A DNA stretch of 50,647 nucleotides from an uncultured Pseudomonadota bacterium (GTDB lineage: Bacteria > Pseudomonadota > Gammaproteobacteria > Steroidobacterales > Steroidobacteraceae), in contig CAIVYV010000072.1 in assembly GCA_903910215.1 (NCBI GenBank), forward strand, positions 1 to 50,647, in the 5' to 3' direction. Below the pieces are notes generated by a model. That model did no database searches and was not told the DNA's origin. It worked only from the letters and a program-made list of their open reading frames with translations. A program made the position numbers and the translations under genes. This document shows positions 46,402 through 50,647 of the stretch, in pieces (the stretch's first letter is position 1; every line of letters begins with the position of its first letter).

Positions 46402-46983
46402 ATGAGTGCCATCACTACGCGAATTCTTAAGCAGGGAGCCGGAGCGCCGTTGCGAGGCCGATACGAGCGTCTCATTCGTTCACGGTATGCGCTCGCTCAC
46501 GGTGCCGAGCTTCAGGACTTCATGCCAAATCTACTCGGTTGCGTCGGGGCAGAGGATCAACCGCTCGCGGTCCTCGGTTATCAGAGTGCCGCGGCTGGCT
46601 CCTTATTCCTCGAACAGTATCTCGATTCACCCATCGATCAGATGCTACTGGGTAGGGGTGATGCAGTCGGTTCTGCAGCAAGGCTAGATCGTCACAGAAT
46701 TGTTGAGGTCGGCAACTTTGCCAGTCGAGATCGGGTGGCTACGATGGAATTACTGCAGCAACTGCCGAGCTTTCTCGCCCGGGAAGGGTTCGAATGGCTG
46801 GTTTTCACCGGCACACCGCGAGTATGTGCACTGGTCGCGGGCTTCGGTGCGCCGCTGCTTGATCTCGGCAGAGCAGACCCTGCGAGGCTGCAAAGCGGTG
46901 CCGCCCGTTGGGGCCGTTATTATGAGAGCACCCCGCGCGTCATGGCGGGTTGGCTGGGTCATTGCGCGCAGGTGGCCGCGTGA
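46402..46983 (+). CDS. 'Thermostable hemolysin' family protein (GNAT-fold acyltransferase-like)
   Basis: The 193-aa protein contains 'RYERLIRSRYALAHGAELQDFMPNLLG...LFLEQYLDSPIDQ...EVGNFAS', which matches my recollection of the T_hemolysin family. This was not verified by a search. Confidence 0.6.
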   Translation: MSAITTRILKQGAGAPLRGRYERLIRSRYALAHGAELQDFMPNLLGCVGAEDQPLAVLGYQSAAAGSLFLEQYLDSPIDQMLLGRGDAVGSAARLDRHRIVEVGNFASRDRVATMELLQQLPSFLAREGFEWLVFTGTPRVCALVAGFGAPLLDLGRADPARLQSGAARWGRYYESTPRVMAGWLGHCAQVAA

Positions 46984-48428
46984 GCGTCGCGTTTCAAGAT
47001 GCACGGGGCACGCTCACGAGCGATGAACTGGTCGATACAGAGGCGCAAGCATCAGCATGGGTGGCGAAAACGCCAGATGCATCGGTGCGCTACGGGCTCT
47101 TTGCCGACAACGGCATCGCCTGGGCGATCGTCGATCGTGCCTTGCATCGCAGCTCTTTCGTCAATGTACCGCTGCCCCGTCACTTCAGTGAGTCGCAACT
47201 GGCCCACGTGGTTGAAGACGCCGCTCTTGATCGAGTCATCACGGATGATCCCGACAAGCTAAATCATCTTCCCGGTGATTGGCGTCGGCTCGACGATGAA
47301 TTCCTGGGGCTGCAGTGCTGGGCGCGATCAATTGCATCGCAGCAAAGTCGATTGCTACCGCCTGCGACCTCCAAGATTACCTACACCTCGGGCAGCACCG
47401 GAAATCCGAAAGGCGTTTGCTTGTCGCGTGCAGCAATGGACTCGGTCGTGAATTCGTTGGTCGGTGTGTTGCGACCACTTGCCGTGCGTCGCCATCTGTC
47501 TCTCCTCCCGTTGTCGACTTTGCTCGATAACCTCGTGAGTGTTCAGGTCGCGCCGGCGCTCGGTGCTACGGTTTTGCTGCCGTCCTTGGGTGAAACCGGC
47601 ATCGGCTATGGTGGAATCGACATCCAGCGAATGTTGTCTTGTATTGATCGTTATTCGCCTGAAAGTCTTTTGTTGGTTCCAGAGTTATTGCGAGTGCTGG
47701 TGGCGTCAGTCACAAAAGGCTGGCGTGCACCAACTAATCTCAAGTTCATCGCCGTCGGAGGAGCGTCTGTTTCTCCGGAGCTCTTGACGGCGGCCCATGC
47801 CGTCGGATTGCCCGCTTACGAAGGCTACGGCCTGAGTGAGTGCGCCTCCGTGGTGGCGTTGAACTCGCCCGCTGCCGCGCACAAGGGCAGTGTGGGGCGC
47901 GTTCTACCGCATGCCCGGATTCGAATCGACGCGGCCGGTGAGATTCACGTCCGTGGCGCGACGATGTCAGGCTACCTCGGAAACGACGATCACGCGCAAG
48001 ATGAGGTGGCTACGGGTGATCTCGGCTTTATCGATGCAGACGGCTTTCTGCATGTACGCGGTCGAAGAAAGAATCTACTGATCACGAGTCTTGGTCGCAA
48101 TGTGTCACCGGAGTGGGTCGAGCGAGAGCTGCTCGCGAGTGGGTACATTGGTCAAGCTGTAGTCTTCGGTGAAGCAAAGCCATTTTTATCCTGTTTGATT
48201 TATCCGAGCAGTCCAATGGTCACTGCGGCAGAGCTTGGCGCAGCGATCGACGCTGCAAATCGCCGACTACCGGACTACGCCCAAGTCCGGCGCTGGGCTT
48301 TGCTACCTCAACCGCTACGCCTTGCGGATGGAACCGTGACTTCCAATGGCCGAACCCGTCGCGACGTGGTGTTTTCGCGCCACCAAAATTTGATTGAGGA
48401 TTTATATGTCGATGCTATCGCCAGTTGA
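46980..48428 (+). CDS. AMP-dependent synthetase/ligase (ANL superfamily)
   Basis: 'TYTSGSTGNPKGV', 'GYGLSEC' and 'TGDLGFIDADGFLHVRGRRKNLL' are present. The GTG at 46980 overlaps the upstream stop (GTGA). The track's TTG at 46950 is an alternative start. Confidence 0.88.
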   Translation: MSVAFQDARGTLTSDELVDTEAQASAWVAKTPDASVRYGLFADNGIAWAIVDRALHRSSFVNVPLPRHFSESQLAHVVEDAALDRVITDDPDKLNHLPGDWRRLDDEFLGLQCWARSIASQQSRLLPPATSKITYTSGSTGNPKGVCLSRAAMDSVVNSLVGVLRPLAVRRHLSLLPLSTLLDNLVSVQVAPALGATVLLPSLGETGIGYGGIDIQRMLSCIDRYSPESLLLVPELLRVLVASVTKGWRAPTNLKFIAVGGASVSPELLTAAHAVGLPAYEGYGLSECASVVALNSPAAAHKGSVGRVLPHARIRIDAAGEIHVRGATMSGYLGNDDHAQDEVATGDLGFIDADGFLHVRGRRKNLLITSLGRNVSPEWVERELLASGYIGQAVVFGEAKPFLSCLIYPSSPMVTAAELGAAIDAANRRLPDYAQVRRWALLPQPLRLADGTVTSNGRTRRDVVFSRHQNLIEDLYVDAIAS

Positions 48429-49080
48429 TGCCTACGGCCGTCTTGCCGACTCCACTCAAAATTCACGAGGTTACTTATTGTCGGCGCCCGTCATCAGACG
48501 AGCCTTGGCAGGTGATGTGACGCGAGACCTTTACGTAGCGTTTCTGACGCAGGCGTATCACCACGTCAAACACACCGTTCCTCTACTCATGGCGGTGGGT
48601 AGTCGGCTCGATGATTCCAAAGATTGGTTGCGCTCAGAGCTGGTTCATTATGTCGAAGAAGAACATGGTCATGAGCAGTGGATCCTGAACGACATCGCCG
48701 CTGCAGGCGGTGATGCAGAGCGCGTGAGACGTTCGAAGCCGCATGTCGAAACGGATGCGATGGTGGCTTATGCCTATGACGTTGCTATGCGACGCAACAC
48801 TGTCGGCTTTTTCGGGATGGTGTTCGTTCTGGAGGGAACGAGTGTTGCGTTGGCTCTCGATGCCGCGAGCCGCATTCAGTCAGCTCTTGAGTTGCCGGAT
48901 CGCGCGTTCAGTTACCTGCGTAGTCACGGCAAGCTGGATCAGGAGCATACACAGCATCTGGCGGGGATCGTCAATCGACTTGATGCCCCATCTGATCACA
49001 TGGCGATCGTCGATTGTGCCAATGCCATGTTCTGGCTCTACGGCAATGTGTTCCGCAGTTTGGAACGAGTGGCCGTATGA
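48406..49080 (+). CDS. Heme-oxygenase-like diiron oxidase/oxygenase (iron-containing redox enzyme family)
   Basis: The protein is all-helical. The ligand pattern comprises 'YVEEEHGHEQW' (ExxH), 'VLEGTS' (E) and 'SHGKLDQEHTQH' (H-x3-D-x2-H). The start overlaps the 3' end of the ligase gene. Confidence 0.7.
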   Translation: MSMLSPVDAYGRLADSTQNSRGYLLSAPVIRRALAGDVTRDLYVAFLTQAYHHVKHTVPLLMAVGSRLDDSKDWLRSELVHYVEEEHGHEQWILNDIAAAGGDAERVRRSKPHVETDAMVAYAYDVAMRRNTVGFFGMVFVLEGTSVALALDAASRIQSALELPDRAFSYLRSHGKLDQEHTQHLAGIVNRLDAPSDHMAIVDCANAMFWLYGNVFRSLERVAV

Positions 49081-49877: not shown

Positions 49878-50530
49878 AGACTAGTCTTGGGCGCAAAATT
49901 TTCGCGGCGTTGTTGCTACTGGCGGCCGTAGCCCCCGTCGGCGCGGCATCGTTGGATGCGGACTTACTCAACATTCAGCAGACATGGGCCCGCATCAACT
50001 ATTCGACAGCGCCTGCCGACCAAAAAGCGACGGAGTTCGGGCAGTTGGCTACCAAGGCAGCGGCGTTGGCTGCGAGTCAGCCAGGGCGCGCCGAGCCGAT
50101 GGTATGGCACGGCATTGCTCTGTCGAGTCAAGCCGGTGCTAAAGGAGGTCTGGGGGCACTATCGCTGGCGAAGCAAGCACGCGGTGTGTTGGAGTCGTCA
50201 CTGAAGATCGATGCCACGGCGCTCTCCGGTTCGGCTCACACCAGTCTTGGCACTCTGTACCATAAGGTGCCCGGATTCCCCGTCGGATTCGGTGACGATA
50301 AGAAAGCGCGTAAGCATCTCGAGACCGCGCTGAAACTGAACCCCGCCGGTATCGATCCCAATTTTTTCTACGCCGAGTTCCTGCTTGATAAGGGCGAGAC
50401 GGCGCTGGCGATCAAACACTTGAAGATCGCGCAGGCAGCGACGTCACGACCCGGTCGCGAGACGGCAGACGCAGGCCGCCGCCAAGAAATCGCAGCGCTG
50501 CTTGGGAAAGTCGGTTCCGCAGGTCGCTAA
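49874..50530 (+). CDS. Secreted helical-repeat (TPR-like) protein
   Basis: The signal peptide is 'MKTSLGRKIFAALLLLAAVAPVGA'. The helical repeats include 'ARKHLETALKLNPAGIDPNFFYAEFLLDKGETALAIKHLKIA'. Confidence 0.55.
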   Translation: MKTSLGRKIFAALLLLAAVAPVGAASLDADLLNIQQTWARINYSTAPADQKATEFGQLATKAAALAASQPGRAEPMVWHGIALSSQAGAKGGLGALSLAKQARGVLESSLKIDATALSGSAHTSLGTLYHKVPGFPVGFGDDKKARKHLETALKLNPAGIDPNFFYAEFLLDKGETALAIKHLKIAQAATSRPGRETADAGRRQEIAALLGKVGSAGR

Positions 50531-50544
50531 GTCGATTGTCGCTC

Positions 50545-50647
50545 ATGCCACTGAAGTTAATCGGGCGAATCAATCTCGATCTTTGGATCGTCGGACTCGT
50601 CGTACTGTTCTTGTTGATGCTTGCGTTGTTCGATGGCGACGTGATGA
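50545..50647 (+). CDS. Start of a membrane protein (3' end lies outside the window)
   Basis: The frame is open from the ATG at 50545 to the window end. The translation 'MPLKLIGRINLDLWIVGLVVLFLLMLALFDGDVM' contains a TM helix. The start lies 14 nt after the previous stop. Confidence 0.3.
   Translation, partial: MPLKLIGRINLDLWIVGLVVLFLLMLALFDGDVM

Follow-up and report, generated by a model that had tools for sequence, protein, structure and literature searches.

The 'thermostable hemolysin' gene cassette in an uncultured member of the Steroidobacteraceae: a conserved operon of a predicted GNAT-fold acyltransferase, an ANL ligase and a heme-oxygenase-like diiron oxidase

The family of 'thermostable hemolysins' (T_hemolysin, PF12261) takes its name from clones of Vibrio parahaemolyticus and V. 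cholerae that conferred hemolysis, according to two later papers (PMC12208996, PMC3996285). These papers give VCA1111 of V. cholerae as dth (delta-thermostable hemolysin) and the ligase VCA1110 as 'DthC, located in dth-region', a designation attributed to Fallarino et al. 2002 (PMC12208996, PMC3996285). In V. parahaemolyticus, a thermostable hemolysin gene (VP1729) is linked to one for an iron-containing redox enzyme (VP1731) and to the two-component gene VP1735 (PMC10469919). Our literature searches returned only incidental mentions of dthA/B/C and VCA1105-1112 and, the 2002 dth paper aside, no link of T_hemolysin to the GNAT fold, to N-acyl amino acid synthases or to heme-oxygenase-like diiron oxidases (HDOs). 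Here we describe an operon found at positions 46402-50647 of a stretch of 50,647 nucleotides from an uncultured gammaproteobacterium of the family Steroidobacteraceae (contig CAIVYV010000072.1; the whole stretch is referred to as the window). The original prediction, made from the DNA sequence alone, had matched this gene combination to no recognised pathway. By its families and gene order it is the same cassette as the V. cholerae dth region (VCA1111/VCA1110) and V. parahaemolyticus VP1729-VP1735, and we give about even chances to the reading that it encodes a pathway for an oxidised N-acyl amide amphiphile of the envelope, with the pathway controlled by a stress or metal circuit and its product carried by the secreted protein of the operon.

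The five complete cassette genes are labelled G1-G5 and the gene at the window edge G6; all positions are those of the window on its forward strand:

46402..46983, + strand: G1, 193 aa, predicted T_hemolysin-family GNAT-fold acyltransferase, cytoplasmic
46980..48428, + strand: G2, 482 aa, adenylate-forming ANL ligase and probable fatty acyl-CoA synthetase
48406..49080, + strand: G3, 224 aa, predicted HDO
49077..49877, + strand: G4, 266 aa, classical short-chain dehydrogenase/reductase (SDR)
49874..50530, + strand: G5, 218 aa, secreted TatT/BstC-like TPR protein (membership likely)
50545..50647, + strand: G6 (incomplete, 5' end), membrane protein of the PAP2 family, lipid A phosphatase-like

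The start of G2 is a GTG that lies on the stop codon of G1 (GTGA at 46980-46983, seen both in the table of open reading frames, ORFs, and in the raw sequence), G2 and G3 overlap by 23 nt (48406-48428), G4 and G5 each start within an ATGA (49077-49080 and 49874-49877), and 14 nt (50531-50544) separate G5 from G6. These ORFs, overlaps and the gap had all been described correctly in the original prediction, to the nucleotide, as judged by the ORF table, the raw sequence and independent gene calls, and the same boundaries are found in the calls from six metagenome contigs that encode an identical 224-aa G3. A scan of the cassette revealed neither a sigma-70-like promoter nor a terminator above chance inside the operon. 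Because of this, of the overlaps and tight spacing, and of the gene order conserved among relatives, we regard G1-G5 as a single transcription unit. Pfam searches agree with the families proposed initially for all five proteins. NCBIfam contains no specific model for G1, G3 or G5, and these proteins therefore have no characterised equivalent in the current NCBI naming rules; Rfam reports no family at its gathering score anywhere in the window (1-50647).

The distribution of the cassette was analysed by scanning the contigs of a one-genome-per-species set with an alignment of G3 relatives, which gave more than 587 matches, and by mapping synteny with tblastn in the best 80 of these loci. The order G1-G2-G3-G4-G5 is kept in every locus of the best 80 that is long enough, as the original prediction would have it for related genomes, and it holds across many genera. 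These loci belong to Gammaproteobacteria (including Rheinheimera, Marinomonas, Methylophaga, Hahella, Microbulbifer and Shewanella fodinae), to Betaproteobacteria (including Polynucleobacter, Azonexus, Dechloromonas, Thiobacillus and Rhodoferax) and to Zetaproteobacteria. Annotated replicons extend this range to Vibrio, Pseudoalteromonas, Variovorax, Pantoea, Citrobacter, Aeromonas and the alphaproteobacterium Novosphingobium, and the gene order is also conserved in those of Vibrio, Pseudoalteromonas, Variovorax, Pantoea and Novosphingobium. A profile search with a T_hemolysin alignment gave no Vibrio protein among the matches listed, and the Vibrio loci came by way of the plasmid collection.

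In Vibrio sp. HDW18, genes for a response regulator and a kinase come after the five cassette genes. This strain and a plasmid of V. parahaemolyticus show directly that families and gene order are those of the window, and the published locus numbering of the Vibrio dth region agrees with the cassette, although the protein identities between Vibrio and the window amount to only ~35-47%. The two loci differ in their surroundings. The Vibrio cassette lies behind a CTTAAG-N5-CTTAAG element and is followed by a PmrA-like regulator and its kinase, whereas the window contains an extracytoplasmic function (ECF) sigma factor, FecR and receptor genes, together with ECF-type promoters, and carries, unlike the Vibrio dth region, PAP2, Omp85-like and EptA genes downstream.

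The protein that gave the family its name appears to be an enzyme. G1 matches T_hemolysin with an E-value of 1.7e-49 (168.4 bits, residues 14-187 of 193), and its AlphaFold2 model, with a predicted local distance difference test score (pLDDT) of 88.7, adopts the GNAT fold. In a Foldseek comparison with the PDB, the best match of this model is FeeM, an N-acyl amino acid synthase (E 6e-8, TM-score 0.61), followed by LasI (E 2.9e-7), MesI, TofI, EsaI, BjaI and RpaI with TM-scores of 0.5-0.6; a sequence search of the PDB gives no match. Both the initial suggestion that T_hemolysin is classed with GNAT-fold acyltransferases, the group of LuxI-type and N-acyl-amino-acid synthases, and the assignment of the 193-aa protein to this family are in line with the Pfam result and with the neighbours of the model. 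Residues G59, E71, Y73, E102 and G171 are invariant in 74 orthologues. We saw no signal peptide on reading the G1 sequence, and the protein has no membrane segment. The enzymes nearest to the predicted fold of G1, i.e. FeeM (from the fee cluster of environmental DNA) and the LuxI-type synthases BjaI, RpaI and MesI, make surfactant-like or signalling acyl amides, but they share no detectable sequence similarity with G1. CoA-dependent enzymes of the LuxI type take acyl-CoA instead of acyl-ACP, which fits the presence of an ANL ligase beside G1, whereas FeeM uses an acyl carrier protein (ACP), of which none is encoded in the cassette, where an acyl-activating ligase is found instead. To our knowledge, the FeeM and LuxI-type systems include no HDO and no TatT-like protein.

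G2 matches the Pfam families AMP-binding (122.9 bits) and AMP-binding_C_3. The NCBIfam models that come nearest to it are MenE, long-chain FACL and FadD11, none of which reaches its cut-off, and its neighbours in the PDB are MenE and the oxalyl-CoA and fatty-acid CoA ligases. The adenylation motifs A3 (TSGSTGxPKG), A5 (YGLSE, i.e. YGxxE), A7 (TGD) and A8 (GRxKN) are conserved in 76 orthologues. At the A10 position (residues ~452-461), where the catalytic Lys (SGK) is usually found, G2 reads T-x-N-G-R, and an Arg is present there in at least 70% of the 76 orthologues. We take this C-terminus to resemble that of the ACSL-type long-chain acyl-CoA synthetases (TPTxKxKR). The protein is soluble, without a membrane segment, and is probably a fatty acyl-CoA synthetase.

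For G3, the match to Haem_oxygenas_2 (PF14518) is clear (E 5.8e-30, 104.8 bits against a cut-off of 28.9), and the AlphaFold2 model (pLDDT 89.9) shows the all-helical heme-oxygenase fold. Foldseek aligns it with 3DDE (TM-score 0.85), CADD (8va9, 0.83) and UndA (4wwj, 0.79), and the models of TenA and CADD stay below their cut-offs, so the placement of the 224-aa protein outside the TenA/PqqC type, on which the original prediction had staked its validity, is supported by profile and model alike. Seven residues (E85, E86, H89, E143, H174, D178 and H181) are invariant in 81 sequences. In the alignment with CADD, five of the ligands match CADD E81, E142, H174, D178 and H181, with E143, H174, D178 and H181 of G3 standing opposite E142, H174, D178 and H181, respectively. 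The predicted metal-binding set is composed of three His residues and three or four carboxylates on the core helices. Thus, the six-ligand HDO pattern proposed earlier stands as a set, while one of its members has to be moved. The first motif is E86-x-x-H89 and not the 'EEEH' originally read, because H87 is variable in the 81 sequences (I/L/H/V/T) and H89 is invariant; the true His is that of 'EEEHGHE', two residues further on. With UndA, CADD, BesC, SznF and 3DDE (Sden_3740), G3 has in common the fold (TM-scores 0.79-0.86) and the conserved ligand set, at sequence identities of 14-25%. The first His follows E86 at i+3, as in UndA, whereas in CADD it is found at i+7.

Two more specific assignments of G3 were considered and rejected. 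A self-sacrificing para-aminobenzoate (pABA) synthase of the CADD type is contradicted by the score of TIGR04305 (28.9 bits against a cut-off of 200) and by the residues themselves: the sacrificial Tyr27 corresponds to I30 and Lys152 to an Ala in G3, and since neither is kept, G3 is not a pABA synthase. Membership of the TenA/PqqC group is contradicted by the PF03070 match, which is limited to residues 36-132 and, at 21.5 bits, stays under the cut-off of 22.

G4 is recognised by adh_short (E 3.9e-46) and by NF006565 (315 bits, above the cut-off of 238). Its cofactor motif TGxxxGxG reads TGGGSGIG at residues 11-18, the catalytic residues S138, Y151 and K155 are invariant in 73 orthologues, and the nearest PDB entries are 3-oxoacyl reductases of the FabG type. 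CprA/HlyF, a PmrAB-controlled SDR of the cytoplasm that is related to lipids and was wrongly called a hemolysin (PMC11752146), is not its equivalent, as proteins of the CprA/HlyF type are extended SDRs of 360-385 aa and G4 is a classical SDR of 266 aa.

The last complete gene of the operon encodes a protein that is predicted to leave the cytoplasm. A Sec signal, MKTSLGRKIFAALLLLAAVAPVGA|AS, with no lipobox Cys, was read from the sequence of G5. Pfam yields only weak TPR matches, and a sequence search of the PDB finds BstC (7t1s, E 4.7e-5) and 8g52. With BstC, the sterol transporter component of Methylococcus, G5 has the motif region LGxLYxKxPxxPxGxGDxxKA in common, and BstC, TatT and G5 are all secreted helical-repeat proteins, but no BstA/BstB or TRAP partner is found near G5. 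NCBIfam BstC scores 28.6 bits, far under the cut-off of 350, and Pfam TAtT 14.8 bits against a cut-off of 26.5; the Novosphingobium orthologue, 42% identical to G5, passes the latter with 26.8 bits and carries the PGAP name 'TRAP transporter TatT component family protein'. We consider the membership of G5 in the TatT/BstC-like family likely but unproven, because the window protein is under both thresholds, and presume that it binds a hydrophobic ligand in the periplasm.

Rearranged versions of the cassette offer clues as to which steps belong together. On plasmid pLA3 of Novosphingobium pentaromativorans (L090, 5621-7657), the ANL ligase and the HDO form one ORF of 678 aa, an arrangement that distinguishes this lineage of G3 from the HDOs UndA, CADD, BesC, SznF and 3DDE, and such a natural fusion argues that the two enzymes would act in consecutive steps on the same intermediate. 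In Streptomyces angustmyceticus p1 (L093) and Acinetobacter haemolyticus p4 (L095), T_hemolysin and AMP-binding proteins are found with a TauD/TfdA dioxygenase in the place of the HDO, and no HDO match was found on either replicon. Since T_hemolysin and the ligase are kept with or without the HDO, the invariant core of the cassette would consist of the acyltransferase and the ligase, and the exchange between HDO and TauD, two O2-activating iron families, points to tailoring of the hydroxylation type, with the SDR acting on the alcohol or ketone. The annotation of the Streptomyces locus includes no TatT-like gene, which is in keeping with a periplasmic function. The Streptomyces locus also includes methyltransferases and an amidohydrolase, like a small natural-product cluster, and that of Acinetobacter has an SDR next to its dioxygenase.

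The cassette occurs under two alternative types of control. The more common one is a two-component system: an OmpR-family response regulator and a histidine kinase are encoded 4-190 nt past G5 in 32 of the 64 loci with enough flank. The regulator scores best with PmrA, then with QseB, and the kinase with heavy-metal sensor, QseC or PmrB models. Upstream of G1, at a distance of 80-155 nt, 31 of the 33 loci of this class have the element NTTAAK-N5-NTTAAK and the other two have one-mismatch versions of it, whereas it is found in none of the 23 loci of the ECF class, the window included (background, 0.014 per kb); in Vibrio sp. HDW18 it appears as CTTAAGGGATTCTTAAG (CTTAAG-N5-CTTAAG), 50-65 nt ahead of the T_hemolysin gene. 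The published pmra-box consists of two XTTAAY hexamers five bases apart, overlapping the -35 region of pbgP, ugd and pmrCAB (PMC10570014), with the variants YTTAAK in Salmonella and TTTAAG-N5-TTTAAG in Acinetobacter (PMC10927774), and the box of the Fe(II)-sensing BqsRS system is TTAAG(N)6TTAAG (PMC4358008). By this comparison, the element upstream of the two-component-class cassettes is the pmra-box/BqsR box, and in most lineages other than that of the window a PmrAB/BqsRS-type system is predicted to control the cassette via TTAAG-N6-TTAAG. Systems of this type sense Fe(III) or Fe(II) and induce cationic-stress tolerance and polymyxin resistance (PMC10570014, PMC4358008). When set beside their regulons (pmrCAB, arn, cprA, speD2E2), the cassette of most lineages sits where pmrC/eptA sits in pmrCAB, yet none of the five cassette genes is a known member of the PmrA regulon, and the window differs in having an ECF sigma system instead of the two-component system and no pmra-type box.

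Some of the linked kinases carry an H-E-x-x-E motif past the first membrane segment. Among those of L025-L086 that were read by eye, it is present in roughly half, which are mainly betaproteobacterial, and the gammaproteobacterial kinases mostly lack it, so that it is no general feature of the linked kinases. The H-E-x-x-E motif is reportedly involved in Fe(III) sensing by PmrB of Salmonella.

In the window, the region upstream of G1 is organised as follows:

46365..46396, + strand: ECF-type promoter facing G1, GCGATGGAT-N15-TGTCTAAC, two mismatches to GATTGAT-N15-CGTCTAA
46332..46363, - strand: mirror ECF-type promoter facing the sigma gene, GCGATTGAT-N15-CGTCTAAC, perfect match
45734..46318, - strand: ECF sigma factor, 194 aa from the ATG at 46318; Sigma70_r2, r4_2 and ECF domains, TIGR02937
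44777..45730, - strand: FecR-type anti-sigma factor/signal transducer, 317 aa; PF04773, weak FecR match (NF007296)
42435..44621, - strand: TonB-dependent receptor, last of the sigma-FecR-receptor unit, 728 aa by gene call; TonB_dep_Rec_b-barrel (E 1e-19), weak Plug match

The sigma gene is divergent from G1 across 83 bp, and the motif GATTGAT-N15-CGTCTAA occurs twice in the window, where 0.18 matches are expected. ECF promoters typically have a -10 element of the CGTC type, and a motif common to a sigma gene and a neighbouring operon is the usual sign of an ECF regulon under autoregulation. The genes for the sigma factor, FecR and the receptor show the composition of a FecI/FecR/FecA-type unit, and divergent sigma and FecR genes lie upstream of the cassette in 16 of the 64 loci with enough flank, in 13 of these 16 together with a TonB-dependent receptor. 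We assign 23 loci to the ECF class, i.e. the 16 with flanking genes, shorter loci, and two that were recognised by the promoter motif. All 23 have the plus-strand motif upstream of G1 and most also the minus-strand copy, whereas the motif was not found next to the cassette in any two-component-class locus. Further copies precede Omp85-PAP2 genes in one locus (L023) and an LtaS-like sulfatase-family gene in another (L036). Taken together, these sequence features indicate that in the genome of the window the cassette is an output of the ECF sigma/FecR/TonB-receptor system by way of duplicated ECF promoters. The absence of a regulator noted in the original prediction is correct for 46402-50647 itself and does not extend upstream, where the operon for the ECF sigma factor, FecR and receptor starts only 83 bp away and has the promoter motif in common with G1. 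No match to the STN signalling domain was found in the receptor by hidden Markov model (HMM) search even at E-values up to 10, with ~100 residues preceding Plug, and on reading the 83-bp intergenic region we saw no AT-rich, Fur-like box.

The 8-bp perfect inverted repeat GGTTAGAC...GTCTAACC (46331-46396) is neither a hairpin nor an operator but the -10 pair of the two divergent ECF-type promoter copies. In the cultured Peristeroidobacter agariperforans KA5-B (L026), an extra ECF motif lies just past G5 (12286, + strand), ahead of genes for a TlpA-like redoxin, a 435-aa outer-membrane-like protein and an ApbE-like flavin transferase, which may be further members of the regulon. Directly downstream of the receptor gene of the window, at 40147-42387 on the minus strand, a 746-aa predicted lipoprotein (LLVSCGGGGG) with a zinc-protease-like HEMTH motif is encoded; it has no Pfam or NCBIfam match and is conserved on the contigs L001-L003 of the same species.

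Another contig of this species (L004) extends past the window edge and identifies the incomplete gene. Here G6 encodes a 231-aa PAP2 protein (PF01569; NF028538, 'PAP2 family lipid A phosphatase', 98 bits, below cut-off) and is followed by genes for a 559-aa Omp85-like protein, with a weak Omp85 match, and for a phosphoethanolamine-lipid A transferase of the EptA type (EptA_B_N and Sulfatase; E-values of 1e-86 to 1e-96 with EptA-type models), all of them overlapping or no more than 14 nt apart. The membrane protein at the edge, which the original prediction had taken to handle the product of the operon, is therefore better described as a PAP2 lipid A phosphatase-like enzyme, and on this spacing the cassette of the window's lineage would be co-transcribed with the PAP2, Omp85-like and EptA genes.

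Two themes recur in the neighbourhood of the cassette: remodelling of envelope lipids (PAP2, EptA, LtaS-like and Omp85-like proteins) and traffic of iron and other metals (TonB-dependent receptors, cupredoxin with FTR1, VIT, cytochrome b561 and CzcA-type pumps). Systems of the PmrAB/BqsRS type tie the two together, because sensing of Fe(III)/Fe(II) turns on cationic-stress modifications.

The cassette is also carried on large plasmids, including the conjugative pLH214-1 of V. parahaemolyticus (L096), a plasmid of a clinical isolate of Citrobacter freundii (H23) and Plas2 of Pantoea deleyi (L088). On the first and the last of these, the cassette adjoins cytochrome b561-type genes and is without an adjacent regulator; a protein of the VIT family (iron transporter) is encoded near it in Pantoea, and the VIT/cytochrome b561 theme is found on the V. 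parahaemolyticus plasmid, too. In the strain of Pseudoalteromonas xiamenensis (L092, 4891-12866), whose T_hemolysin gene is broken by a frameshift, ten overlapping genes appear to make up a single operon that joins the cassette to a response regulator and kinase, to a cupredoxin and an FTR1-type 'iron transporter', and to a hypothetical protein.

From the gene structure, family and fold assignments, synteny and cis-elements observed here we propose the following scheme, in which all chemical steps, with their order, acceptor and destination, are our inferences from family, fold and context. Activation by G2 would turn a carboxylic acid, fatty or other, into an acyl-adenylate or acyl-CoA. G3, as an O2-dependent diiron HDO, would hydroxylate or otherwise oxidise the acyl chain or the acceptor, and G4 would interconvert the resulting alcohol and ketone. 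G1 would then move the acyl group to an amine acceptor to give an amphiphilic N-acyl amide, e.g. a lipoamino acid or aminolipid, which G5 may bind as a hydrophobic product in the periplasm and take towards the outer membrane. The role of the product would be envelope remodelling under metal or cationic stress, which we find most likely because the cassette is apparently co-transcribed with PAP2 and EptA genes in this lineage. By analogy with HlyF/CprA, the heat-stable hemolysis that named the family would stem from the lipid product and not from the protein.

A number of points weigh against this scheme. G1 aligns with FeeM and LasI at TM-scores of no more than ~0.6, and the acyl acceptor could be a hydroxyl instead of an amine. 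The cassette contains neither an inner-membrane exporter or flippase nor an O-acyltransferase, and the lack of the former leaves the route of the lipid to G5 unexplained. The neighbours point to iron traffic as much as to lipid remodelling, with PAP2 in only four and EptA in only three of the 64 loci with enough flank. The small molecule as the source of hemolysis is our own suggestion. The primary dth papers (Taniguchi 1990; Fallarino 2002) aside, our literature searches turned up neither a product nor a substrate or activity for one of the five proteins, in agreement with the earlier statement that the gene set has no characterised product.

The strongest alternative, which we regard as rather unlikely, is that the cassette makes a secreted small molecule, either a signal or a metal chelator of amphiphilic nature, re-sensed outside the cytoplasm by the receptor, FecR and sigma factor in the genome of the window or by G5 and the kinase in other lineages, and feeding back on the operon, as in siderophore or autoinducer circuits. 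A biosynthetic operon beside sigma, FecR and receptor genes with a duplicated sigma promoter is the classic siderophore layout. On pLA3 of Novosphingobium, where the cassette gains a methyltransferase dependent on S-adenosylmethionine (SAM), the ECF sigma, FecR and TonB-receptor genes follow in the same direction, and in Pseudoalteromonas the overlapping operon joins the cassette with a two-component system, cupredoxin and FTR1. The modelled likeness of G1 to LuxI-type signal synthases would suit a signal, and some of the characterised HDOs, e.g. RohS, carry out N-oxygenation. However, the cassette has no exporter and no chelating-group chemistry recognisable from sequence, the receptor has no STN match by HMM search, and on inspection by eye G1 showed none of the SAM-binding residues of the LuxI N-terminus. 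The ECF promoter is also found ahead of PAP2/Omp85 and LtaS-like genes, which fits a remodelling regulon better than one for uptake.

It is improbable, in our estimation, that the cassette decorates lipid A or lipopolysaccharide (LPS) directly, with the ligase activating a small acid or amino acid and G1 adding it to lipid A or the core, like the AlmEFG glycine addition of V. cholerae without its carrier protein. Such a function would be suggested by the apparent co-transcription with PAP2 lipid A phosphatase-like and EptA genes in this lineage, by the place of pmrC/eptA in pmrCAB that the cassette holds elsewhere behind a pmra-type box, and by the recurrence of EptA, PAP2 or LtaS-like genes nearby. 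Yet G1 and G2 are soluble, with no membrane segment, and G1 resembles soluble N-acyl amino acid and N-acyl homoserine lactone synthases, not membrane acyltransferases of the LpxL/AlmG type. Lipid A decoration would also leave the periplasmic lipid binder, the HDO and the SDR without a role, and the T_hemolysin and ANL pair is present in Streptomyces, which has no lipid A.

We see little probability in a route that would break down or detoxify fatty or aromatic acids from outside the cell, e.g. CoA activation followed by an UndA-like decarboxylation to an alkene, with G5 as a binder on the uptake side. In its favour could be cited the match of the HDO model to UndA (TM-score 0.79), the partnership of TatT proteins with TRAP uptake systems that their family name implies, and a V. 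cholerae vca1110 transposon mutant with an altered elongation pattern of fed C13:0 (PMC12208996). This phenotype, however, was minor and was put down by the authors to possible promiscuity (PMC12208996). Moreover, the cassette is linked to no importer, of the TRAP type or otherwise, the GNAT acyltransferase that invariably stands at its head is hard to fit into such a route, and control is of the envelope-stress type instead of by substrate-responsive repressors.

Finally, the view that G1 is a genuine protein hemolysin among unrelated neighbours can hardly be upheld: the hemolysis-conferring Vibrio clones mentioned at the outset speak for it, but G1 has no signal peptide or membrane-inserting element and adopts a predicted GNAT fold with invariant Glu and Tyr residues typical of catalysts. 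Its translation is coupled to that of four enzymes or binders in over 80 genomes, mostly those of environmental bacteria that are not pathogens, and its V. cholerae counterpart is, according to the title of Fallarino 2002, not a direct contributor to virulence.

The locus as such is already known and has been annotated piecemeal. What appears to be new is the re-reading of T_hemolysin by its fold, the link to TatT/BstC, the exchange between HDO and TauD, the fusion of the ANL ligase with the HDO, and the two alternative control circuits, of which the window represents the ECF-controlled variant of the cassette, extended by PAP2, Omp85-like and EptA genes. We propose tentatively, and with less than even confidence, that the proteins of PF12261 are not toxins but the founding enzymes of a widespread pathway for a heat-stable, membrane-active N-acyl amide, with a new kind of oxygen-dependent tailoring by ligase, HDO and SDR, a TatT/BstC-like ferry through the periplasm, and a position as a new output arm of iron- and cation-sensing PmrAB/BqsRS-type or ECF/FecR/TonB-receptor systems. 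The product would be a new aminolipid of the outer membrane or a new diffusible signal or chelator. G3 belongs to a large clade of HDOs, matched in more than 587 species of the one-genome-per-species set, and the fusion with the ligase and the swap with TauD are leads on the substrate of these oxidases. The dth gene still serves as a virulence marker in Vibrio typing, and it would be mislabelled if the G1 family are acyltransferases. As pmra/BqsR-type boxes or ECF promoters stand ahead of the cassette and EptA and PAP2 genes adjoin it, the cassette may add to polymyxin, cationic-peptide or metal tolerance in the bacteria that carry it, among them the tractable hosts V. cholerae, V. parahaemolyticus, Pseudoalteromonas and the cultured Peristeroidobacter agariperforans KA5-B.

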